A stretch of 64,000 nt of DNA from Verrucomicrobiota bacterium (GTDB lineage Bacteria; Verrucomicrobiota; Verrucomicrobiia; Opitutales; Coraliomargaritaceae), in NCBI GenBank assembly GCA_039815375.1, contig JBCBZJ010000013.1, forward strand, positions 17,984-81,983, read 5' to 3'. Below, piece by piece: positions 165 to 12,260 of the stretch; position 1 is the first letter of the stretch, and each line of letters starts with the position of its first letter. Below the pieces are notes generated by a model, which was given only the letters and a program-made list of their open reading frames with translations, was not told the DNA's origin and searched no databases. Position numbers and translations under genes: made by a program.

Positions 165-276
165 GTTGGCATAACAGTAACGGCGATAGCACAAAAAGTT
201 TTTTAGATCGCAGTATATCTTGCTCTCGACCCTATGCACAGTTCGATTTCAAGCTATTGGCTTACCAATACAAGAG

Positions 277-1113
277 ATGAGGATTGTTGCCTACCTAATG
301 CCATGCCTTATAGCACCACTGCTATTTAGTGAAGAAACGACACCAGCCCTGACTGAGTCAGAGGCGCTTGAAATTGTCTATGCGCAGCGAGAAGCAAAGG
401 CAGCTCTAGAGCTTGAGCGCAAACAGCGTATTCTTGGGGTTGAGGCCGAGAATGAAACTGTTCTCGATAGAGGCAGCCACAAAATGATCTTACGGCGTGT
501 GGGCTGGCAGCCTCTTGTTGCTCAGATTGAGACTGAAAGTGCTTCCGCTGGAACGGACACAGACTTTTCCGGTATCGTGCCCGAGCATTCTATGATTTCC
601 ATAAGCTCTACCGTTTATGATGACACCTTCACGAAGGTGACATGGCGTGAACCGGGTGCTGCCGGAACCAAGCCAATTAATGTCTGGGTCAATCGGAATC
701 TCAAATACTTAAGCCTCATTCATCAGTTCACCCAGAATGGAGTTCATTACAGCTATGTCGGTCCAACCCAAAGCATCGATACAGATGCCTATGTGACGCA
801 CCCCGTTACCGGCGAACAATTCCCACGCTATGATTTGCCGGACTGGATGCCGACCGCTGAAGACTTCCCCTCCGATACGTCTGCCTACCTTGTTGTTCTT
901 GAAGATGAGACGTCTGTTGTTCCTCAACTTCTCTACCAGCAAATGGATGCGCTCTTAGTGCATTTCACTGAAAACGAGCCCGAGCTACTCGCGTCTTACC
1001 AGCGCAAAGAGGCTTTGAAAAAGGCTAAAGCACAACTCGACGAACAGGAGCCGGAAGCCAAACCTGATGTAGTGATCAACTACTGGCCTATTCAAAGCAA
1101 CGCAGACCTTTAA
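277..1113 (+). CDS. Secreted hypothetical protein, first gene of RHS operon
   Basis: ORF 220..1113; ATG at 277 gives a signal-peptide-like N-terminus (MRIVAYLMPCLIAPLLFS); ends 6 nt before next gene. Confidence 0.75.
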   Translation: MRIVAYLMPCLIAPLLFSEETTPALTESEALEIVYAQREAKAALELERKQRILGVEAENETVLDRGSHKMILRRVGWQPLVAQIETESASAGTDTDFSGIVPEHSMISISSTVYDDTFTKVTWREPGAAGTKPINVWVNRNLKYLSLIHQFTQNGVHYSYVGPTQSIDTDAYVTHPVTGEQFPRYDLPDWMPTAEDFPSDTSAYLVVLEDETSVVPQLLYQQMDALLVHFTENEPELLASYQRKEALKKAKAQLDEQEPEAKPDVVINYWPIQSNADL

Positions 1114-1119
1114 GACGAT

Positions 1120-3441
1120 ATGCGAAAACTCCTATTCTGTTTTTCCCTTACTGGGCTGGCTTCGACCAGTGTTTTAACCGGGCAAACTTCGACCGACCTG
1201 AATGAAGGCACGCAGGTTAATACAAGCACGACACCGGATAACTATATCTTTTCATGGTGGGGCAAGACCGGTCGTTTCTACGTAATCGAACACAGTGTAG
1301 ATTTACTCTCCCCGTGGAACCACATTCGTGCGATTGAACCCGGGTATGACGAGGCTGCCGAATGGGGCTTTGCGACCAATTCAGATAAGTTCTTCCTCAG
1401 ACTAAAATATACCGATGATGCTCTGATCGGTTCATTCTATGGGGATGACGATCTCGATGGTATTATTAACGGTGTCGAATTATTACTTGGCTATTCTGCA
1501 ATTACCGCTAACGGCAATACAGATGGCGATTTGCTGACAGACCGTCAGGAACTTGCGTTGGGTCTCGATCCAAATAATAATACCGACGCAGTTGACGGTG
1601 ATGCTGACGGCGTAGTCGATGCAATCGAAAGACTCTATGGTCTATCCACTTCCGGCACCACCGATTTGGACGGAGATTCGATGCATGATGAGTGGGAGCT
1701 ACTGAACTACCTTGATCCAGCGATTAATGATGCATCTGACGACCCGGATGCAGACAACAGGACAAACCTGCAGGAATTTACCGATGGCACCAACCCCTGG
1801 GCTTTTGATACCGATGGCGATACCATCCCCGATGATGTCGAAATCACCAATTCACTTGATCCTACTATCGCCGACCGTATCCGGACGCGAAACAACTACA
1901 CTTTGCAATTCAGTTCCGATCTTGAGGATGATGAAAATCAGTTTGTCGACCGCGTTTCTGAAAACGGAGGCTTTACCGTTAATGACGGCTCAGTGATTGC
2001 GGCCATAGACAATTCCGGCTTGGTCTATGCAGTTGGAGATAATTCCCGAGGCCAGTTCGGTTTGGGCAGTGCTGCCGTGGGTAACGTCTACACCACTCCG
2101 ATTGCGACCGGATTCAGTGGAATCAAAAGCGTTGCCGTAGGACGGGGAACAATCCACGCAGTTGAAACTGCGGGCACTGTCCGTGCGGCTGGAGCACAGG
2201 ACCTTGGACGTCTCGGTAATGGTCTGACCACTTCTGCAGATGTAGATATGCCGGTTACCCTTTCCGGCTTTACCAATGTCAGTTCCATCAATGCCCGATC
2301 TGAAGGTGAATACTATGATGCGGTTGTTTCAGGAGATATTTACGTATGGGGCACCAATCTCTTGGACGCGTTTTCCAACTATTACGGCGACGGTTCATTC
2401 ACGACCGCAGAGCCCACGCCGTTCGGCCCCTTGAAAGGCATTAGCGATGCCGAGCGTTTGTCTTCCGATTATACAGATGCCCGAAGCAGTCAGGCAGCGA
2501 CCGTCTTGGAGAATGGCTCTGTTCTAATGTGGGGGACGAACGCCACTGGTTCCCTAACGGTAAATAGTGATAATCTCTATCTTACTAGCGAGAATAGCTT
2601 TGAGACAGTGTCCGGGCTTCCTGCCATGGAAGAGGTATCGCTATACTACGGTTCAGTGGCAGCTCTGGACCGATCAGGTGGCTTATGGACTTGGGGTGCG
2701 TTCAATGGTTTTAGTGGCAGCGTCAATTATACGGCTCAGAGAACCCCCGCACTTGCCGCAACTGAAGTTCCAGTTCGCGCCTTGTCTGCCGCGAATTATG
2801 ACGATTTCACTCCTCTGAATTTTAAAGACAGCTATGGCCTCTTCCTCGGCGACGATGGCCATGTGCGGCGCTTTCAGTGGCTTGAAGATAGTGATGTATA
2901 TGCGACTGCGGGCGGTGATTTGGGTAAATTCTATGTGCGCCCATTGGATCTGCCTTTTCGGGTTATTGCACTGACTTCGACTATAAACGGGGCATTTCTG
3001 CTCAGTGAGACGGGCGACCTATACAAGTATTCCGAGGTCGTCGGTGTCGCCGAAGTCATCGAATTGGAAGAAATCGCTATTCCGAACTTTTTTGCTTCGA
3101 CCGATAGCAATGGTGACGGGCTTAGTGATGCTCTGGAACGCTTCCTCGGCCTGAATCCTTCAAGTGCAGATACCAATGGCGATGGGATAACCGATTTCAT
3201 TTCCGTCCAGCTTGGTCTCGATTCCACAGCATGGGATCTGGATGGCGATGGTATTCCAAATGAGGTGGAAATCGCCAATGGCCTGGATCCGAACGCTCAG
3301 GACTCCGATGGAGATGGGATGCTCGATAACGAAGAGTTCTACCTGAAGGATCGTCTGAACAACTATATTCTAGCCACCGAGCCTAACACCTCCGGCCCCG
3401 ACATTGTTCTTGTTGAGCCGAGTTCGGCCACTGCCCTTTGA
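1120..3441 (+). CDS. Secreted protein with thrombospondin type-3-like Ca-binding repeats flanking an RCC1-like beta-propeller
   Basis: Signal peptide; many DxDGDGxxDxxE..LGLDP repeats; RCC1-like units (GLVYAVGDNSRGQFGLG, GSVLMWGTNATGSL, GGLWTWG). Confidence 0.85.
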   Translation: MRKLLFCFSLTGLASTSVLTGQTSTDLNEGTQVNTSTTPDNYIFSWWGKTGRFYVIEHSVDLLSPWNHIRAIEPGYDEAAEWGFATNSDKFFLRLKYTDDALIGSFYGDDDLDGIINGVELLLGYSAITANGNTDGDLLTDRQELALGLDPNNNTDAVDGDADGVVDAIERLYGLSTSGTTDLDGDSMHDEWELLNYLDPAINDASDDPDADNRTNLQEFTDGTNPWAFDTDGDTIPDDVEITNSLDPTIADRIRTRNNYTLQFSSDLEDDENQFVDRVSENGGFTVNDGSVIAAIDNSGLVYAVGDNSRGQFGLGSAAVGNVYTTPIATGFSGIKSVAVGRGTIHAVETAGTVRAAGAQDLGRLGNGLTTSADVDMPVTLSGFTNVSSINARSEGEYYDAVVSGDIYVWGTNLLDAFSNYYGDGSFTTAEPTPFGPLKGISDAERLSSDYTDARSSQAATVLENGSVLMWGTNATGSLTVNSDNLYLTSENSFETVSGLPAMEEVSLYYGSVAALDRSGGLWTWGAFNGFSGSVNYTAQRTPALAATEVPVRALSAANYDDFTPLNFKDSYGLFLGDDGHVRRFQWLEDSDVYATAGGDLGKFYVRPLDLPFRVIALTSTINGAFLLSETGDLYKYSEVVGVAEVIELEEIAIPNFFASTDSNGDGLSDALERFLGLNPSSADTNGDGITDFISVQLGLDSTAWDLDGDGIPNEVEIANGLDPNAQDSDGDGMLDNEEFYLKDRLNNYILATEPNTSGPDIVLVEPSSATAL

Positions 3442-6400
3442 TTACGATGCTTAGACATTTACTTCTTGCGATTAGCTTCGCTTCCCTAGTTGTCTTGCCG
3501 ATGTGGGCCGACTTGCCCCGACGTGCTGTGATCGCGGCTCCTGCTGAGAGCCAGGAGGCAGTGGCGTCCTCTGCCGATGCAGTTGAGGACGCTTCACCCT
3601 TTCGTTTCAGTCCGATTGCCGATGGCACGGCTACGGATGCCGAAAATAATGAACTCGCCGGTCTCCTGACACAGTATGCGACTTCCGCCAAACCCTATGA
3701 TTTTACATGGCTGGATGCATATCTAACAAAGTATCCAGATAGCGCGTGGAAGGGCGTCCTGTGCCTGAACCGTGGCCTTATTGAGCGTTATAACGGATTT
3801 ATCGGCGCGTCATTCAAGTCGTTTGAGCAAGCTTGGGTATCACTCAAGGAGTCAGAGGACTTGATGCTTCGGGGATATGCCAACCATGCCCTTGCCGAGC
3901 TGATCTCAATCAAAGCTGGCCTTGGGCGGATGGATGAACTGGAAGTGCTTTTTGCGAAGACCGAAGGAAGGCGTTTTCATGGTAAATCTGCTCAGTTGAT
4001 TTCCAGCGCCCGTGAAGGCCTGTCTTCGATGGAAAAATTCCCGGAGCGTTCCTTTAATTGCGGTCCGGCAGCCCTGCTCAATGTGCTGGCAACTTTAGGT
4101 GACGAAGCCGCAACTGACCCCCGCATCATGTCTAAGGCCGCCACGACGGACGGCTTGAATTTGTGGCAAGTATCCGAATTGGCCCAGGAGGTTGGGTTCA
4201 ACGAGCACATTCTGGCCTATCGCGAAAACGGCGGCATCCAACTGCCGGCGATCCTGCATTGGAAAGAAGGGCACTTTTCGGCTTTGTTGAGGCTGGAGAA
4301 CAGTCGTTATCTCATTAAAGACCCCACGCTTGGCAATGTCATGTGGGTGCCGGAGGAAGCGGTCGATTCCGAAGCAAGCGGCTACTTCCTGTTGGCCAGA
4401 AGTGATGTGCCGGAGGGTTGGCGTGAAGTGGATTCGGGCGAAGCAGAAGATATCTGGGGTAAGGGTAAGGCCACGACTTATGAATTAGGTTCCACAAGAC
4501 CTTACGACCTTAAGAACTGTGAGGAAAATGGCAATCCCGGTATGCCCGGCCACAGTGTGCACCTGCTCGCTCTCAGCGTCAATGTGACCGATACCCCAAT
4601 CTGGGTAAACACGCCCTATGGCCCTTCAATGCATTTTACCGCGACCTACAACCAGCGTGAAATCAGCATTCCACTGACGGATCAGTTTGGTTTTATGGGC
4701 CTTAACTGGACGCATAACTGGCAGTCCTGGATTGATGCCAACCCAGGCAACGGCAGCATTATCCCATTGGCCGCCACTCGCATGGTTGCCGGTGGCGGTA
4801 AAGAGGATTTTGAAATCAATAATGGCAGCACGGGCTATAAGCCGCAGCGCGATACGCAGGCTGACTTGGTCGCGCTGTTCGATGGGGGCAACTTGGACGG
4901 CTTTGAACTTAATTTTCCGGATGGCTCTAAATGGGTCTATCAGCATGAGCAGGCATACATGGCCAATTCTAACGCACGGTATTTCCTGACGAGCATTACT
5001 GATCCTTACGGTAATGCCGTTACGATAAATTACGACAGTGACGACCGCATTCAAAGCGTCGATTCCGGTGCAACAACGGCAGTTGATTTGAAATTTGCCT
5101 ATGAGTTTAACGGCAGCGGCCAACCTGTTTGGCCCTCCTCCGCTTCATCCGATGTCGAAGATAATTTTATTCGCGCGGTCATTGGCCCGCAGGGGCGTTA
5201 TGCCGAATTTGACTACAACGACGACCTGATGGTGAAGCGTGTCGTAGATATGGCTGGAATGGAATCGACTTTCAGTTACAAGGATGTGAACAGCAACGTT
5301 TACATTGGTGCATACGCTACTCCTTACGGAACGACGGTCTTTGATTATCCAGAAACGAATGGCACGGATGATGTGGTCCGTGGTGTCGTCATCACCGATC
5401 CCGAAGGCCAGAAGGAACGGCTGGAATACAATCAGGTAGATTTCAACTTTCCGGGAGAATTAGTTCCTTCCGGCACAGCCCTGGGCATTCACTTCTACGA
5501 CGATCTTAATACCTATCATTGGGACAAGCGCGCCATGGAAACTGCGGTGCAGACGGATGGCTCGGTTGATTACGGTGAAGCCACAATTTACCACTGGATG
5601 CTGGCGACCAGCCAGCAGGCCTCCTCTGTGCTCCACAGCATAAAGCGCCCGCTGGAGAACCGCGAGTGGCTGATTTACGATGATTCCCCGGATGGTGGCG
5701 CGACGATTGGCGCGACAAATCGTCCTTCTGCAAACGAGCGCTACGTAAAAGATGAATCCGGTGCCACCGTGCTCCGCACTACCGGGTTCGAATACAACAG
5801 CCTCGGGAACATGACCGGCAGCATCGATCCGAGGGGCCGCGAGCTGGAAATGAACTATGCCGCCAACGGCATCGACCTGCTCAATGTGAAGCAGCGCACC
5901 GGGGCCGGAGCCAACGACTTTGAGACCCTGAACAGCTTCGATTACGATGAGGATAACGACGGTAACGATGACTTCCCGCGACTGCCTTCCCTGATCGATG
6001 GGGCGGATGGCGTTCGTCTGGACATGACTTACAATAGCGAGGGCCAAGTTACCTCTGCTATACGCAAAGAGCCGGACGGATCGGGCGGTTTCACCGACAA
6101 GGGCACGACAGACTACACGTATTACACAACTGGCGATCACATCGGCTTTTTGGAGAAGATTGAAGGGCCAAGCGTGGGTGGTTCGCGTGCTACTACGACT
6201 TACACTTATGATGATTACGGGAGGGTGGAGACAGCGACCGATACCGATGACTTTACGCTCACATATACATATGACGATCTCAACCGGATTGTTAAAATCG
6301 ATTACCCGGACGGCACGCATATCGCCAACATCTACGAGCCCTTCAGTGACGGTCTGGATAGGATCGGCTTCCGTGACCGGATGGGCCGCATCTCGCAATT

Positions 6401-9008
6401 CCGGCACGATGATCTGGGCCGCGTCGTGCAGTCCATCGATCCTAAGGGCCAGAGCACCCTTTACCAGTGGTGTGGCTGCGGCTCACTCAATGCGCTGATC
6501 GACCCGAAGAGCCAGGCCACCACCTGGCAGCGCGATGTGCAGGGCCGCCTGACCAAAAAGGAGTATGCGGACGGCACCCGCATCGACTACGCCTACGAGC
6601 CTGAATCCGGCTTTATCAGCAAGGTGACGGACCAACGCGGCTATGAACAGGAGTTCAAATATTTTAAGGACGGCAATATCGAGGAAATCAGCTTCGATGA
6701 CGGCGGCACTGCTGACCCCAATTACATCGATGCGCCAACTTTGACTTACGATTATGGTGATTTCACTGACCCTAATGATCCCAATCGCTATTTTAATCGC
6801 ATCCATTCAGTTACTACGGCAGGAGATCCTGACGATTACATCTACCAGTATTATGGCTTCACCGGAGATGGAAATGCCAACCGCCTGCAGAAAGTCACTA
6901 TTTCCAAGCAGCGCGGTGCGCAAACGGTCAATAACGACATCGATTACGCTTACGATGATCTCGGACGCCTGCTGACCCGCAGCTTCAGGGGAGATACCGA
7001 GACCTACAATTATGACGATTTGGACCGCCTAAATAGCTTAAGCGATCCTCTTGGCGACTTTATCTATAGCTATGACGAGCTCACCGCTCGCATCCTCAAC
7101 GTTCAGCACTCGGTTTCCTCTGTTAACGGTATCCGCACCGATCTAGCCTATCAGAGTAAGATCGCCGGTGGTGAGGAGCGTAAGGTGCCTTACCTCAGCA
7201 GCATTAGCCACAGTAATCCCTCCGGCACCGTCAGCGCTCATGCCTACCTGCGTAATGAAAACGGCTGGATTGATCTCTGGCAGCAGTTCGACGGCAGCCA
7301 GTGGCAGAGCCACAGTTACCGCTATGACCAGCAGGGGCAGCTCCAGCGCGACCGCAAATATGACGGTCTCGATGAGAATAGCCCACTGCTCGAAAGTGAA
7401 GAATACCGCTACGACTTGGCGGGTAATCGGACTTTGTATAAAGACGGTAGTGCCCAGCTCAACGATAGACACAATAACCAGCTCAACCAGCTCAACCAGC
7501 TCACCGCACGCAGCAGCGAGGGTAGCGTGCTCTTCCACGGCACCATCAGCGAACCCGGTAAGGTCTTCGTTCAACAGCTCGACGGCAGCAACAACGTGCT
7601 CACCTCTACCGAAGCGCAGCTCTATGGCGGGAATGAATTTTACGCTTCCTTGGACTTGCCCGTCGGCAGTAACACCGTCCGAATTATCGCCACCGACATC
7701 CACGGCGAGAGCACCACGCAAGATTACTCGGTTCCCGTGGCCGCAGACATTGGCGATAGCTTCACCCACGATGCAGCAGGAAACTTAACACAGTGGACGA
7801 AGGCTGACGGAACTGTCGTGAAATACAAATGGGATGCTGCGAATAGGCTCCGTGAAATTTTGGTCGATAGCGTCTCGATCAAGACCTTCGAATATGATGG
7901 TTCCGGGCGCATGGTCCGCGCGACCAGCGGAGGTCAGAGCGACGATTACTTCTGGGATGGCTTGGAGCGTTTAGGCCGCGAGAATGTAGATGCGACACCG
8001 ACGGTCTATCGTCGCTACTTAACCCAGGGCTTCACCGTGAGTCTCGACGGAGCCACTGCTTCGAATTACTACGTCCTCCGCGATCACTTAGGCAGCACGC
8101 GTGAAGTGCTCGACGGTACTTACGCCACCGTCGCCACTTACGATTACTCGGCGTGGGGTGAAGTAAGTAAACTAAGCGGCACCGTCGACGCCGACCAGCT
8201 TTACACCGGGCATCTCTACTTTGCGGACACCGAAACACCGCTGCACCTCGCGCCGTATCGGAGCTATCAGCCTGAGTTGGGGCGTTGGTTGCAGAGAGAC
8301 TTTCTAGGAGAAACAGGACCGGATGGACCAAACGTTTACGCTTACACCCAGAACAATCCTGTTAACTGGTTCGATGGCACCGGACTTTGGACTTCAGCTC
8401 ATTCAGCTGTCGCAGTAGCTGCAGCATGGGGCGCTGGAGCGGGTGCTTTCGAAGGTGCAGTGACCAGCGTAGCTTTTCAGGCAATTGAAAATGCAGGCAA
8501 TGGCGATTCCTGTGTGAACGCTAGTGGTGGTATTGATGGTGGCCGTGTGTTGCAGGACGCTGTAATTGGTGCAGGCATCGGAGCAATCACTGCGGGTGTC
8601 GGAACCAAGTTCCAAATCTTTGCTAAGATTGCTAATCGACTGAAGGGAGCCACAAACAAGTTTGCTCCGGGAGCATCTCGTCTAGTAAATGCGCCAAATG
8701 CTAAGATTGATCCGAGAAAGTTAACAGATTATGCCCTGAATCCGAATCATCCTGTTGGTGGTAACAAAGCAAAGGTGTTCGAATCAGCTCTTGGCTACAA
8801 CCAGTCAAATGCACAAGGCTTACTCAAGCAGCTTCAACAAGGGGTTCTCAATAACACGCCTGTTGCTGGAAAAGTTGATAATTTCGGAAGTCGTTTCACT
8901 GTGGATATTCCCGTTACAGGTCCTGGTGGAAGTGGAACTGTTCGAACTGGTTGGATATTTAAATCAGGGTCAAATACACCCGAGCTAACAACACTATTCG
9001 TAAAGTAA
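3438..9008 (+). CDS. RHS/YD-repeat polymorphic toxin with N-terminal signal peptide, C39-like cysteine peptidase domain and DUF6883-like C-terminal toxin
   Basis: CGPAAL / HWKEGHF / IKDPTLG C39 motifs; YD repeats; RHS core RDHLGSTR...ELGRWLQRD...NPVNWFDGTGL; Gly/Ala-rich pre-toxin segment; tip KLTDYALNPNHPVGGNKAKVF...VRTGWI...PELTTLFVK. Start is TTG 3438 or ATG 3447. Confidence 0.92.
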   Translation: MITMLRHLLLAISFASLVVLPMWADLPRRAVIAAPAESQEAVASSADAVEDASPFRFSPIADGTATDAENNELAGLLTQYATSAKPYDFTWLDAYLTKYPDSAWKGVLCLNRGLIERYNGFIGASFKSFEQAWVSLKESEDLMLRGYANHALAELISIKAGLGRMDELEVLFAKTEGRRFHGKSAQLISSAREGLSSMEKFPERSFNCGPAALLNVLATLGDEAATDPRIMSKAATTDGLNLWQVSELAQEVGFNEHILAYRENGGIQLPAILHWKEGHFSALLRLENSRYLIKDPTLGNVMWVPEEAVDSEASGYFLLARSDVPEGWREVDSGEAEDIWGKGKATTYELGSTRPYDLKNCEENGNPGMPGHSVHLLALSVNVTDTPIWVNTPYGPSMHFTATYNQREISIPLTDQFGFMGLNWTHNWQSWIDANPGNGSIIPLAATRMVAGGGKEDFEINNGSTGYKPQRDTQADLVALFDGGNLDGFELNFPDGSKWVYQHEQAYMANSNARYFLTSITDPYGNAVTINYDSDDRIQSVDSGATTAVDLKFAYEFNGSGQPVWPSSASSDVEDNFIRAVIGPQGRYAEFDYNDDLMVKRVVDMAGMESTFSYKDVNSNVYIGAYATPYGTTVFDYPETNGTDDVVRGVVITDPEGQKERLEYNQVDFNFPGELVPSGTALGIHFYDDLNTYHWDKRAMETAVQTDGSVDYGEATIYHWMLATSQQASSVLHSIKRPLENREWLIYDDSPDGGATIGATNRPSANERYVKDESGATVLRTTGFEYNSLGNMTGSIDPRGRELEMNYAANGIDLLNVKQRTGAGANDFETLNSFDYDEDNDGNDDFPRLPSLIDGADGVRLDMTYNSEGQVTSAIRKEPDGSGGFTDKGTTDYTYYTTGDHIGFLEKIEGPSVGGSRATTTYTYDDYGRVETATDTDDFTLTYTYDDLNRIVKIDYPDGTHIANIYEPFSDGLDRIGFRDRMGRISQFRHDDLGRVVQSIDPKGQSTLYQWCGCGSLNALIDPKSQATTWQRDVQGRLTKKEYADGTRIDYAYEPESGFISKVTDQRGYEQEFKYFKDGNIEEISFDDGGTADPNYIDAPTLTYDYGDFTDPNDPNRYFNRIHSVTTAGDPDDYIYQYYGFTGDGNANRLQKVTISKQRGAQTVNNDIDYAYDDLGRLLTRSFRGDTETYNYDDLDRLNSLSDPLGDFIYSYDELTARILNVQHSVSSVNGIRTDLAYQSKIAGGEERKVPYLSSISHSNPSGTVSAHAYLRNENGWIDLWQQFDGSQWQSHSYRYDQQGQLQRDRKYDGLDENSPLLESEEYRYDLAGNRTLYKDGSAQLNDRHNNQLNQLNQLTARSSEGSVLFHGTISEPGKVFVQQLDGSNNVLTSTEAQLYGGNEFYASLDLPVGSNTVRIIATDIHGESTTQDYSVPVAADIGDSFTHDAAGNLTQWTKADGTVVKYKWDAANRLREILVDSVSIKTFEYDGSGRMVRATSGGQSDDYFWDGLERLGRENVDATPTVYRRYLTQGFTVSLDGATASNYYVLRDHLGSTREVLDGTYATVATYDYSAWGEVSKLSGTVDADQLYTGHLYFADTETPLHLAPYRSYQPELGRWLQRDFLGETGPDGPNVYAYTQNNPVNWFDGTGLWTSAHSAVAVAAAWGAGAGAFEGAVTSVAFQAIENAGNGDSCVNASGGIDGGRVLQDAVIGAGIGAITAGVGTKFQIFAKIANRLKGATNKFAPGASRLVNAPNAKIDPRKLTDYALNPNHPVGGNKAKVFESALGYNQSNAQGLLKQLQQGVLNNTPVAGKVDNFGSRFTVDIPVTGPGGSGTVRTGWIFKSGSNTPELTTLFVK

Positions 9009-9013
9009 TTGGC

Positions 9014-9205
9014 ATGAAAGAGCATGATACAGTTCGACTAAAAACAGACGTAGAAGATTATGGCTTAAAAGCTGGAATGATTGGTGTCATCGTATGCGTT
9101 TTCGATGAACCCGAGATTGCTTATGAAGTTGAATTTTCAAACGAGAAAGGAGAAACCATATGTGAGCTAGCGCTTTCTGCGGATAGTATTGAGTTCGTGG
9201 CATAA
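9014..9205 (+). CDS. DUF4926-like immunity protein cognate to the RHS tip
   Basis: 63 aa, acidic; D.V.L..D....GL.AG..G.IV.......AYEVEF...G.T pattern; 5 nt after the toxin stop. Confidence 0.85.
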   Translation: MKEHDTVRLKTDVEDYGLKAGMIGVIVCVFDEPEIAYEVEFSNEKGETICELALSADSIEFVA

Positions 9206-9562
9206 TTTGTCGCCACAAACAACGCAATCCCATCAACGCTTGCTCGTGTTGTTCCTGACAATGCAGCGACTAGAGCTTCGGGCACATTAGGCAGATCGAA
9301 TGCTGATGATGTTTTTGTTACAGCCGCAGAAGATATAAGAGGCTTAAACTCTGCTCAAATTGCTGAACGACTTACTATACAACCTAGCTCTACTGGTTTT
9401 AGGGTTACAGAATTTGCTACTCCACCTAACGGATTAGCTACGCCGATCAATCGCCTTGACGATGGCTTTATTGGCGGTGGTCGAACCGCTGGAGGAGCAC
9501 GAGAGTTTGTTATTCCAAATGGCCCGATTCCACCTGGTGCAACAACGAGGACGATCCCATGA
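9206..9562 (+). pseudogene. Start-less orphan toxin domain, Ntox10-like
   Basis: Hand translation: FVATNNAIPSTLARVVP...LGRSNADDVFVTAAEDIRGL...GLATPINRLDDGFIGGGRTAGGAREFVIPNGPIPPGATTRTIP*; open 118 codons with no ATG; stop overlaps the next gene (ATGA). Confidence 0.8.
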
Positions 9563-9840
9563 GTAAAATAGAACCGAACGAAAAAGAGATCATTGGTAAG
9601 TGGTTATTTGAAGGCTCAAAAGTAACTGGCGATTCAGCATGTAAGCGAATCGAGGATCTAACTCAGAACTATCTCAAGGAGCTGGCTGCTGACGGAGAAG
9701 ATTGGTCTATACTTTATCAAGATCCAGAAGATCAGAGGTATTGGGAGTTTACTTATCCTCAAAGCCACATGCACGGTGGCGGGCCTCCAGCTTTGACTTT
9801 GCTTCAAGATGAGGAAGCGAAAGCTAAATACAAAATCTAG
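9559..9840 (+). CDS. Imm27-like immunity protein
   Basis: LYQDPEDQRYWEFTYPQSHMHGGGPPAL signature; translationally coupled to the preceding toxin domain. Confidence 0.85.
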   Translation: MSKIEPNEKEIIGKWLFEGSKVTGDSACKRIEDLTQNYLKELAADGEDWSILYQDPEDQRYWEFTYPQSHMHGGGPPALTLLQDEEAKAKYKI

Positions 9841-9860
9841 CCAACTCCGTTCGCTAAGTC

Positions 9861-10481
9861 ATGATTACGATTCTACGTTTCATTCTCTTCTTTCTGGTGG
9901 CACCAGCCTTTGCTATCGTAGCGCAAGCGGCTGGAAGCCTTCAGGATGATTTCCGCATCTTAGATGTTGATTTTCAGGCTGAGTTGGTCGCTTTAGATCT
10001 TACTGACGGTGAAATCTGCAACTACGACTCAAGCGGTGCACTGTTGCATCAACGCAAGAGCCTCGACGGCGAAGATCGCCTAATCGAATTCGAAGAATTG
10101 AAAACATCAGGGGCGGAACGGCCCCTTTTTTTGTTTTTGGCCGAATTAGTAGCCACAAACAAGTTGGTCGATACCAATACGATTCGATTTACGCAAGATA
10201 GCATCAGTTCCAGATTTAGGGATGGTAGATCTGTTCAAGGGCTAATTGACGATTTGGGCTCTGGCAGAGTTTCGCCTAATGATCTGCCTCCGATTCGGAC
10301 ATTCCAGCAAGATGGATTAACATTCACACTCGACAATCGTAGGCTCTTCGCGGCTGATCAGGCAGGTGTTCCGATCAGAACCGTTCCTGCTACGGCAGCC
10401 GAAGTTGCAAAAGAGCTCCCGAAAAAGTTTACGACGCCAAATCAAGGAACTATAATTGGTATCAGAGGTAAACTGGAATAG
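9861..10481 (+). CDS. Orphan cassette: hydrophobic leader + linker + ParB/Srx-like toxin domain (toxin begins about 10152)
   Basis: IRFTQDSIS..F.DG.....LIDDL..G...P..LPPI...TLDNRRL.AA pattern of ParB-like toxin tips; upstream part may not be expressed as one protein (internal terminator). Confidence 0.7.
   Translation: MITILRFILFFLVAPAFAIVAQAAGSLQDDFRILDVDFQAELVALDLTDGEICNYDSSGALLHQRKSLDGEDRLIEFEELKTSGAERPLFLFLAELVATNKLVDTNTIRFTQDSISSRFRDGRSVQGLIDDLGSGRVSPNDLPPIRTFQQDGLTFTLDNRRLFAADQAGVPIRTVPATAAEVAKELPKKFTTPNQGTIIGIRGKLE
10109..10138 (+). terminator. Intrinsic terminator inside cassette 2, just upstream of the toxin domain
   Basis: AGGGGC-GGAACG-GCCCCT followed by TTTTTTGTTTTT. Confidence 0.65.
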
Positions 10482-10492
10482 GAGAGCTAGAA

Positions 10493-10747
10493 ATGGAGCT
10501 ACATGAAAAAATCGAATCTATTGATTCTAAAGATCAACTCGTTGACTTTCTCAGTGCGTTAAAGTCGGATTTTTCTCAAAATAAAGAAGACTGGGAAAAC
10601 CCGAATCTGGAAAGATATTTGGATGCTATGGAAGCATGGACAGGCTCTTGGGAGAATCTCTACAAGAATACTGGTCGGGAGTTCCCGGAGCAACCTACGT
10701 GGAGCATGGTAGCTGAGATGCTTTATGCCGCCAAGATTTACGAGTAG
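10493..10747 (+). CDS. Putative immunity protein (DUF7660-like) for the ParB-like toxin
   Basis: 84 aa acidic; WENPNLERYLDAMEAW...PTW...AEMLYAAKIYE; GGAG RBS; follows toxin directly. Confidence 0.75.
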   Translation: MELHEKIESIDSKDQLVDFLSALKSDFSQNKEDWENPNLERYLDAMEAWTGSWENLYKNTGREFPEQPTWSMVAEMLYAAKIYE

Positions 10748-10990
10748 TATTCTAAGGCTGTTTATTGTGTTGCTGACTCTTTTCGGGAGTCAGACGGTAG
10801 CACTTGGGCAAATTGACGCCGAATTTGTAGCCACAAACAAGGCGCCGAAAGTATTATTTGGACAACCCAATGTTAAATCGACCTTTGCTAATGGCCCATT
10901 CAAAGGGAAGTCGATCAACGAAGTTTCTCAGGGGCTTAGGAATGGGACAATAAGTCCAGACCAATTACCTCTAGATGTTATTATTAGTAA
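10748..10990 (+). pseudogene. Truncated third orphan cassette: hydrophobic leader + N-terminal half of a second ParB-like toxin
   Basis: ILRLFIVLLTLFGSQTVALG...EFVATNK-APKVLFGQPNVKSTFANGPFKGKSINEVSQGLRNGTISPDQLPLDVII, then similarity stops before the expected NxR motif; no immunity gene follows. Confidence 0.65.
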
Positions 10991-11435
10991 CCCCACATGC
11001 CAACCAATAGCGCGACTGCCATGTGGTGCCAAAATTGATGAAAAACATTGAATGCAGCTTCTCGGATACAACCCCCTCTTGTCAGGTTCGTCTGTTCTTG
11101 GCTACCGGCTTGAGCAGGAGGTTCGTTTTTCGAATGCTCCAACGGCTCTCACTGGACTTGCCCTTTCACAGACAGCCTGTGCTTACGAGCGTAAACCTCT
11201 CCTACGCTTTGCACATCCCAACGGCTTGCCCGCCTCGTACCGCTTTCCCCGTTAACCGATAGAAACCCGCTATTTGTTTCAACCTGAATTTCTGTTTCAA
11301 ATGATAGGTAGGCATGCGACTGCTTCAATTATGTCGTATTCCGTGTAAGTGAAAGCGGGTCTGTAGTAAACGATTAAGCGAAATCCATTACTTCGCGGGT
11401 TTTCATCTCCGGCAGATGCTTCTCTTTCATGTCTC

Positions 11436-12173
11436 TTAATTTAGAGTATGTTCTTTGCGGTAGCGCCCGGGCGACGTATTGAAGACTTTTTGAAATTCGC
11501 GCGAGAAATGGCTGTGATCATAGAAACCAACCTCTTGGGCAATGTGGCTCAGGGTGGCCTCGGAGTTGATGAGTAATTGGCTGGCTCGGGTCAGGCGATA
11601 GCGAATCAGGAAACGTGACGGTGTTTGCTGGAAGGCGAGGCGAAAGCGACGTTCAAACTGACTTACGGACAGGCCGGCAACCTGTGCGAGGTCAGTCATC
11701 TCAATCGCTTCAGCATAGTGTTCGCTGATGTAGTCGACCACGGAATTCATCCGGCGGTAGGGCTGCCAGGAAACGTCACTGCGCGCGAAGTCGCGCATAC
11801 AGCCGATGATGCCGATGCAGTCGCCGCTCTGATCGTAAAGCGGAAATTTACTGGTGACGTGCCAAGAGATGGAGCCGTCCGCATTGGCCACCAGCTCAAT
11901 TCTTCGTAGGATAGGTTCTCTGCTCTTTATGACCTGTTGGTCATCTTTTGCGTAGTGGCTAATCATGTAGCTTGGGAAGAAATCGTAGTCGGTCTTTCCC
12001 ATGAGCTCTGCTTCCGAATCGAGACCGAGTTTCTCGAGCTGGAGTTCGTTGGCGCCGATAAATCGACCTTCGCGGTCTTTCATGAAAAAGTATACGTCCC
12101 CGAGAGCAGAGAAGAGGGCTAGCACGCTGGATGGATCCAGCTTTTGGTGTAGGGAGCGATTAATTGAATTCAT
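11436..12173 (-). CDS. AraC-family transcriptional regulator with N-terminal PAS domain
   Basis: YFFMKDREGRFIGAN...GKTDYDFFP PAS; LSVSQFERRF...IAQEVGFYDHSHFSREF AraC HTH. Confidence 0.92.
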   Translation of the reverse strand: MNSINRSLHQKLDPSSVLALFSALGDVYFFMKDREGRFIGANELQLEKLGLDSEAELMGKTDYDFFPSYMISHYAKDDQQVIKSREPILRRIELVANADGSISWHVTSKFPLYDQSGDCIGIIGCMRDFARSDVSWQPYRRMNSVVDYISEHYAEAIEMTDLAQVAGLSVSQFERRFRLAFQQTPSRFLIRYRLTRASQLLINSEATLSHIAQEVGFYDHSHFSREFQKVFNTSPGRYRKEHTLN

Positions 12174-12260
12174 TTTTAAATGTTACGCCGAAAATATACA
12201 CAAAAATGCTGGAAATTTCCAAGTTTTAGGTTGTTTCGATCTGATATTATTTTCTGCCCC

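Follow-up and report, generated by a model that had tools for sequence, protein, structure and literature searches.

It has long been asked how polymorphic toxins exchange C-terminal tips, and Poole 2011 (PMC3150448) calls the tip-swapping mechanism unknown. The question is raised in concrete form by an RHS toxin gene in a 64,000-nucleotide stretch of a Verrucomicrobiota genome (contig JBCBZJ010000013.1; hereafter the window), where the gene is followed by an array of three further toxin tips and all four tips begin at the same short DNA word. Tips switch at this word, and leaders, tips and RHS parents are joined there in mixed combinations. In addition, intact elements lie in rhs and cdiA-like genes in the order gene-core-tip-immunity-XRE-primase-xerC-leader-core-tip, in some cases with a toxin-antitoxin (TA) pair between xerC and the leader. 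The cassette system and its DNA site are real, and comparative evidence ties them to this widespread primase-XerC element. GCC(A/G)CAA is the tip exchange point in this RHS family, and we consider it probable, from sequence comparison, that it is the crossover core of a PRK01287 XerC, carried by a primase-encoding mobile element, that would insert tip-immunity-leader circles into the RHS gene in frame.

Tips switch at a short DNA word

A sequence-only reading of the window had reported that the four tips open at an identical in-frame 11-mer, and this is what we observe: GCCACAAACAA occurs exactly at 8649, 9212, 10152 and 10830, always on the + strand. These are four of its seven occurrences in the 3.56-Mb genome, and in dinucleotide shuffles of 8601-10900 (2.3 kb, n=1000) no 11-mer occurred more than twice. 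The left flanks quoted in that reading and the dyad TTTGT-NGCC-ACAAA (at 9212 and 10830) are present as written, and the copy within the RHS gene is the right half only. Exact identity between any two copies spans just 11-15 nt. The orphan tips were also correctly described as lacking RHS-core sequence, their left flanks being unmatched in the RHS core and linker except for one 17-nt hit (E 0.016). The features of the locus are as follows.

3447..9008, + strand: RHS toxin gene, with a signal-peptide-like N terminus, C39 peptidase domain, RHS repeats, core, linker and tip 1
8373..8387, + strand: DGTGL, which corresponds to DPxGL and closes the RHS core; orthologs show no switch here (motif name from PMC3150448)
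8388..8648, + strand: Ala/Gly-rich linker of 87 codons, kept in orthologs up to the site
8649..8659, + strand: site 1, a half-site (core only) in the RHS reading frame
8649..9008, + strand: tip 1, DUF6883 (E 6.7e-28), fused to the RHS protein
9014..9205, + strand: DUF4926 gene, putative tip 1 immunity gene (family by match, role by position)
9199..9222, + strand: leader stub (13 nt) plus site 2, tip 2 being without a start codon
9212..9562, + strand: tip 2, Ntox10
9559..9840, + strand: Imm27 immunity gene
9861..10151, + strand: long leader (type 1), 97 codons with its own ATG and a hydrophobic N terminus
10043-10053: dyad GTTG-N3-CAAC in the long leader
10131-10141: inverted core copy in the long leader
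10152..10481, + strand: site 3 (10152-10162) and tip 3, which has no Pfam family
10493..10747, + strand: DUF7660 gene, putative tip 3 immunity gene (family by match, role by position)
10752..10829, + strand: short leader (type 2), ~26 codons, without an ATG found in the copies of two other genera
10773-10793: dyad CTGACT-N9-AGTCAG in the short leader
10830..10982, + strand: site 4 (10830-10840) and truncated tip 4, its right edge set by the loose end at 10983

From site to site, the units measure 563, 940 and 678 bp. Each tip is followed by a small immunity-type gene except tip 4, which is truncated and has none; Imm27 is the only one of these genes named as an immunity family. Tip 4 is weakly similar to tip 3 (32% over 50 aa). 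Pfam does not support the label "ParB" that had been given to tip 3; the sole lead is a weak neighbor in Atlas with ParB_N at 0.76, and Atlas otherwise places the tip in unnamed clusters only. No Rfam family matched within 8000-12200.

We next consider where related proteins change tips. A search with the linker gave three hits including the window's own, and hence two orthologs, P0145 and P0146. The sequence-only reading had set the word against the DPxG motif as the point of exchange, and the alignment locates the switch at the word, with the orthologs alike for 87 residues past DGTGL. P0145 (74.6% identical to the RHS protein over 1816 aa) reads ..NRLKG-AKH at the divergence, and P0146 (71.0% over 689 aa) reads ..NRLFGK-ATNK and then runs through the first 15 residues of tip 3. 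The tip of P0146 is chimeric, these 15 residues leading into an Ntox10 tip that resembles the one in G017:C146 (handles give genome and contig; L and P numbers denote loci and proteins), and a deletion within an array would give such a product. Tips are also found on other partners. Tip 2 shares 111 of 116 residues with a tip fused to the long leader in P0011, and a single tip occurs behind an RHS-type linker (G017:C198), the short leader (L087) and the long leader (P0012); at the DNA level, identity between the G017:C198 and L087 tips begins one base before the core. In contigs from two other runs of the same study, the short leader carries a different tip from 10840 on, and one of these contigs has the short and long leaders in reverse order.

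The sequence-only reading further held that synonymous positions of the word are conserved. In a set of 28 junctions (8 RHS or RHS-like, 20 leader or stub), positions +3 (C) and +6 (A) of GCC(A/G)CAA, both four-fold silent, are fixed in 28/28, while the encoded peptide varies among ATN, AAN, AAK and AAR; the constraint thus acts on the DNA. Other positions are freer, with A in 18 and G in 10 junctions at +4, variation at +8 and +9, and A13/T8/C5/G2 at -1. The silent positions are likewise fixed in 21/21 junctions of loci obtained mostly by protein or leader homology, whereas GCC makes up only 11% of the Ala codons in tips. Among ten loci with multiple sites, nine keep one 9-nt core variant across RHS and unrelated leaders, an outcome reached in 0 of 100,000 permutations. 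Many tyrosine recombinases require identical overlap sequences, and a single core variant per locus is the trace expected from such an enzyme. A loxP-like 12-8-12 site was considered and rejected, as it fits leader 1 only and its spacer differs from the RHS copy.

The sequence-only reading had suggested testing the word for enrichment at toxin-domain starts. A pattern scan of species genomes gave 37 matches, of which only two lie in a toxin context by our own reading and the others look like chance. The word by itself is not diagnostic. The 17-nt full site was found in 2 of 101 family genomes, and the site is missing from the six other RHS loci of the window's genome; at G001:C19, the orphans are ordinary ones that retain the core.

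Several further observations concern the surroundings of the array. An unrelated segment on the - strand at 10983-11300 ends tip 4, and a contig from another run has other DNA before 10983. This segment, which we take to be like the decayed 5' end of a group II intron, had no match in Rfam, plasmids or the genome and contains no reverse transcriptase-like open reading frame (ORF) by motif; a short piece (11218-11257) matches another contig. The DUF4926 gene ends in EFVA-stop, overlapping the leader stub (9193-9211) and echoing the AEFV end of the leader, and a deletion between short homologies may have removed the leader before tip 2. Upstream of the RHS gene, at 220-3441, lie two conserved genes, one for a protein of 297 aa and the other for an RCC1/acidic-repeat protein. 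Pairs of this kind also stand before RHS genes at G000:C2 and G017:C146 and are possibly an export or presentation module. In G000, the genome studied here, three RHS loci (contigs C54, C6 and C45) are followed by the same insertion-like sequence, and genes resembling REP-associated tyrosine transposases adjoin RHS loci on C44 and C62.

Leaders and the primase-XerC element

What joins to the word on the orphan side? The orphan tips stand behind conserved signal-peptide-like leaders, a feature absent from the sequence-only reading. A search with the long leader returned 23 proteins including its own, in all of which the leader is kept and the switch follows directly, into 21 tip groups. Because its DNA is open into the tip in 10/10 aligned copies and has a dN/dS of 0.39, the long leader is a coding segment; 5 of its 19 four-fold columns are invariant, namely the two core positions and three in the small dyad region. 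The short leader is 92-94% identical in two other genera, and the identity ends with the end of the word. Related arrays hold two further leader types, and leaders 1 and 2 share arrays with leader 3, which lies next to xerC; neither leader 1 nor leader 2 was seen directly behind xerC. At L085 3457-3930, a fourth leader type ends in an APK junction and carries a tip closely related to the leader-1 tip in L028. The long leader was found in 3 of 401 order genomes and the DNA of each leader in 3 of 101 genomes, viral contigs searched with both leaders gave nothing, and Atlas held nothing usable on the leader.

These leaders also modify an earlier proposal, which likened the half-site in the RHS gene and the full sites of the orphans to a hybrid attachment site. 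The half-site/full-site layout is seen in intact elements, but the orphan-side "site" is a whole conserved leader and not 13 nt. The accompanying suggestion of a recombinase acting in trans has likewise gained a candidate family with the predicted layout, of which one member, possibly not the cognate enzyme, is encoded elsewhere in the genome. The window's contig lacks the pairing of a CHC2/Toprim primase with an XerC that passes the family cut-off, which is present on contig C44:

G000:C44, 1-6031 (L092): complete-looking element with XRE regulator, primase, XerC, leader, and tip-like and immunity-like ORFs

The C44 XerC scores 447.5 bits against NCBIfam NF002331 (PRK01287; cut-off 371). About 20 database XerCs are 91-95% identical to it, which suggests many recent copies in related organisms; a 95%-identical one is labeled Puniceicoccaceae. 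Members of the PRK01287 XerC family turned up in 8 of 401 phylum and 9 of 401 order genomes.

We read 21 xerC copies by eye. Behind sixteen of them lie a leader and either an RHS-core or a tip ORF; four are cut by contig ends and one is unclear. At L090, a related array lies beside a CHC2/Toprim primase and xerC; at G160:C21, an xerC remnant is followed by a TA pair and then leader 3; and at G542:C62, an intact xerC is directly upstream of a leader ending in GCCGCAAAG. At G516:C4, an rhs gene contains two elements in tandem, in the order RHS-tipA-immunity-primase-xerC-leader-tipA-immunity-primase-xerC-leader-tipB, with the exchange limited to 7 bp (AATGGCT). XerC also occurs on 26 plasmid records, of which we read four; in three, the element lies directly behind a tpsA2, hemagglutinin-type or FG-GAP-repeat gene. 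In NZ_CP090650.1, the tpsA2 gene and both downstream units have a common 10-bp core, GGTGCAAAAG, and the leader end resembles leader 3. NZ_CP072857.1 is an 11.3-kb circular record composed of such modules, either an excised form or a circularized tandem repeat. The cores differ between elements, and some lie in the RHS core. At the locus in the window, too, a leader arm ends at a short core that is also present in the target toxin gene. The motif TTAGYYGC (9 in C44 versus 0.07 per kb genome-wide, 0 in window positions 8001-11500) was rejected as a candidate for the crossover site, since the array has none and further copies occur within the primase gene.

Based on these comparisons, we propose that a circle carrying leader, core, tip and immunity gene, with or without XRE-primase-xerC, would integrate at the core of a toxin gene. 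Each integration would put a new tip in frame on the RHS protein, leave the old immunity gene in place and set the old tip behind the leader, whose signal-peptide-like start may allow the displaced tip to be exported as a small toxin. Three such events, with circles that have no recombinase gene and measure 678, 940 and 563 bp, would have built the array, the oldest tip being last; tip 3 would formerly have been on the RHS protein, as P0146 suggests. Integration itself, the order of events, the export of leader-tip proteins and present activity are what we infer from the arrangement of the sequences. The broadest form of the proposal, in which these are cross-phylum mobile elements whose XerC integrates inside rhs/cdiA-like genes, swaps the warhead in frame, keeps the old immunity gene and lets the displaced tip be exported, with recombinase-less circles using the same sites to build integron-like arrays, seems to us evenly poised between right and wrong.

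Weighing the alternatives

A number of results weigh against XerC-mediated integration at the word. Motif lists were scanned by eye to locate several of the RHS-side junctions, G017:C146 entered the set through a motif search, and the junction counts include kin and so are not independent. Nothing is conserved to the right of the core, unlike in a two-armed Xer/Cre site, and a 12-8-12 dyad is present in the long leader only, with 4-10 of 12 pairs. Contigs from three runs of one study contain no alternative RHS-tip junction. As the sequence-only reading stated, no recombinase was seen in the window: tblastn with an XerC query was empty for it and its contig, other recombinase families not having been searched there. 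The C44 element has a different type of leader, and the similarity between this element and a close relative in G306 ends at a sequence other than GCC(A/G)CAA, so the cognate enzyme may be absent from the genome. In three other site-bearing genomes, the same query found no full-length family XerC, with a 93-aa fragment in G015 and 34-42% hits only in G017 and G447, and G160 has a remnant; the assemblies consist of 70-630 contigs. Junction class also shows no clean mapping onto the XerC tree.

Some of these results would suit another enzyme. The word could be a true DNA recombination site used by host XerC/XerD, an integron-like single-strand reaction or a transposase, with the primase-XerC element as a fellow traveler, an explanation we regard as unlikely but the best of the alternatives. 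It would accommodate a locus without xerC, a genome whose own element has a different junction, and the sites in G017 and G447, where the family XerC was not found; the leaders, moreover, can form short hairpins. It sits poorly with leader 3 and related arms lying directly behind xerC or its TA pair at several loci, and with such cores bounding tandem intact elements.

We think it improbable that the leader-tip genes are separate small secreted polymorphic toxins, spread by homologous recombination in leaders of 80-300 bp, from which RHS genes occasionally pick up tips. Leader 1 is indeed long, conserved, open into its tip in every aligned DNA copy and repeated in arrays, but this origin leaves unexplained both the single core variant per locus across unrelated leaders and RHS parents and the half-sites in 8 RHS or RHS-like frames.

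Slightly less probable again is a reading of the word as a peptide motif that signals processing or marks a boundary, with tips exchanged by rare homologous or microhomology-mediated recombination: all junctions are in frame, the dN/dS of the leaders indicates protein-level selection and certain orphans of contact-dependent inhibition (CDI) systems have nothing but the VENN-coding stretch in common with the parent gene (PMC3150448), yet the peptide varies over invariant silent positions and the shared identity of 11-15 nt compares with 522 bp in the Salmonella case (PMC3967940).

Relation to known systems

Leader type 3 of the related arrays, the half-/full-site layout and the gene order agree with the XRE-CHC2/Toprim primase-XerC (NF002331, PRK01287) elements in rhs and cdiA-like genes; unlike them, the window has cassettes only. 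The array works like an integron or shufflon and fails membership of both. In the shufflon (Rci/sfx), a tyrosine recombinase swaps a protein C terminus at a short repeated site by inverting segments between opposed sites. Here, too, a C terminus is swapped at a short repeated site, but all four exact sites are direct repeats on the + strand with no adjacent recombinase, so that exchange requires excision and integration rather than inversion. Integrons have same-orientation cassettes, a platform half-site and attC cores of the form RYYYAAC...GTTRRRY. Our array resembles them in its same-orientation cassettes, its half-site platform and the newest unit, which would lie at the platform (for IntI insertion, see PMC8138268). 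It differs in that its core is GCC(A/G)CAA, not GTTRRRY, and its cassettes are partial genes fused in frame; the IntI (TIGR02249) score was 126.5 bits, below the cut-off of 265, and no IntI was found beside the platform site.

Among toxin systems, orphan rhs-CT/rhsI and cdiA-CT/cdiI modules (PMC3150448; Koskiniemi 2014, PMC3967940) likewise form tip-immunity arrays behind a full-length gene, with tips fused to full-length genes elsewhere. The premise of the sequence-only reading, that such orphans usually keep a stretch of the parent gene, has published exceptions (PMC3150448). In the present array, by contrast, orphans are without parent sequence and have their own leaders, and the switch falls 87 codons past DPxG rather than right after it, with the core defined at the DNA level. 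The tested homologous model needs ~500 bp of homology, and the cell can lose the old immunity gene (PMC3967940); unlike this deletion, insertion at our locus would retain it.

Recombinases have been linked to immunity arrays before. Zhang 2012 (PMC3482391) noted XerC/D genes beside polyimmunity loci and suggested that they help gather immunity genes, and rAID-1 arrays of Bacteroidales (bioRxiv 10.1101/471110) tie an XerD-family tyrosine recombinase to interbacterial-conflict arrays with repeated motifs between units. Those are immunity arrays, whereas here the site is inside the toxin frame and alters the toxin, and the recombinase belongs to a primase element instead of heading the array. In Bacteroidales, rAID-1 is recognized by an XerD-like gene at the 5' end and, behind it, co-directional immunity genes of low GC; our array is not of this kind. 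Our literature search gave no description of site-specific tip replacement or of the primase-XerC element as a tip-swapping unit, although the element is visible in annotations; the available parts of PMC5131962, PMC11278526, PMC3942780, PMC8386352, PMC10210955 and PMC8138268 have nothing on it. Xer-dependent systems next to poly-immunity arrays are mentioned in bioRxiv 10.64898/2026.07.13.738213 with reference to Martinkus et al. 2026, and that work or the Zhang 2012 supplement may reduce the novelty.

If the proposal is true, bacteria would have a dedicated, RecA-independent engine of toxin polymorphism. With an enzyme family, a 7-10-bp core, half- and full-site partners and a predicted circle in hand, the question of tip exchange becomes testable by a simple reporter. 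Such a system would explain the frequent xerC and primase genes beside rhs/cdi loci, and it would add to the recombinases a family that produces protein fusions in frame.

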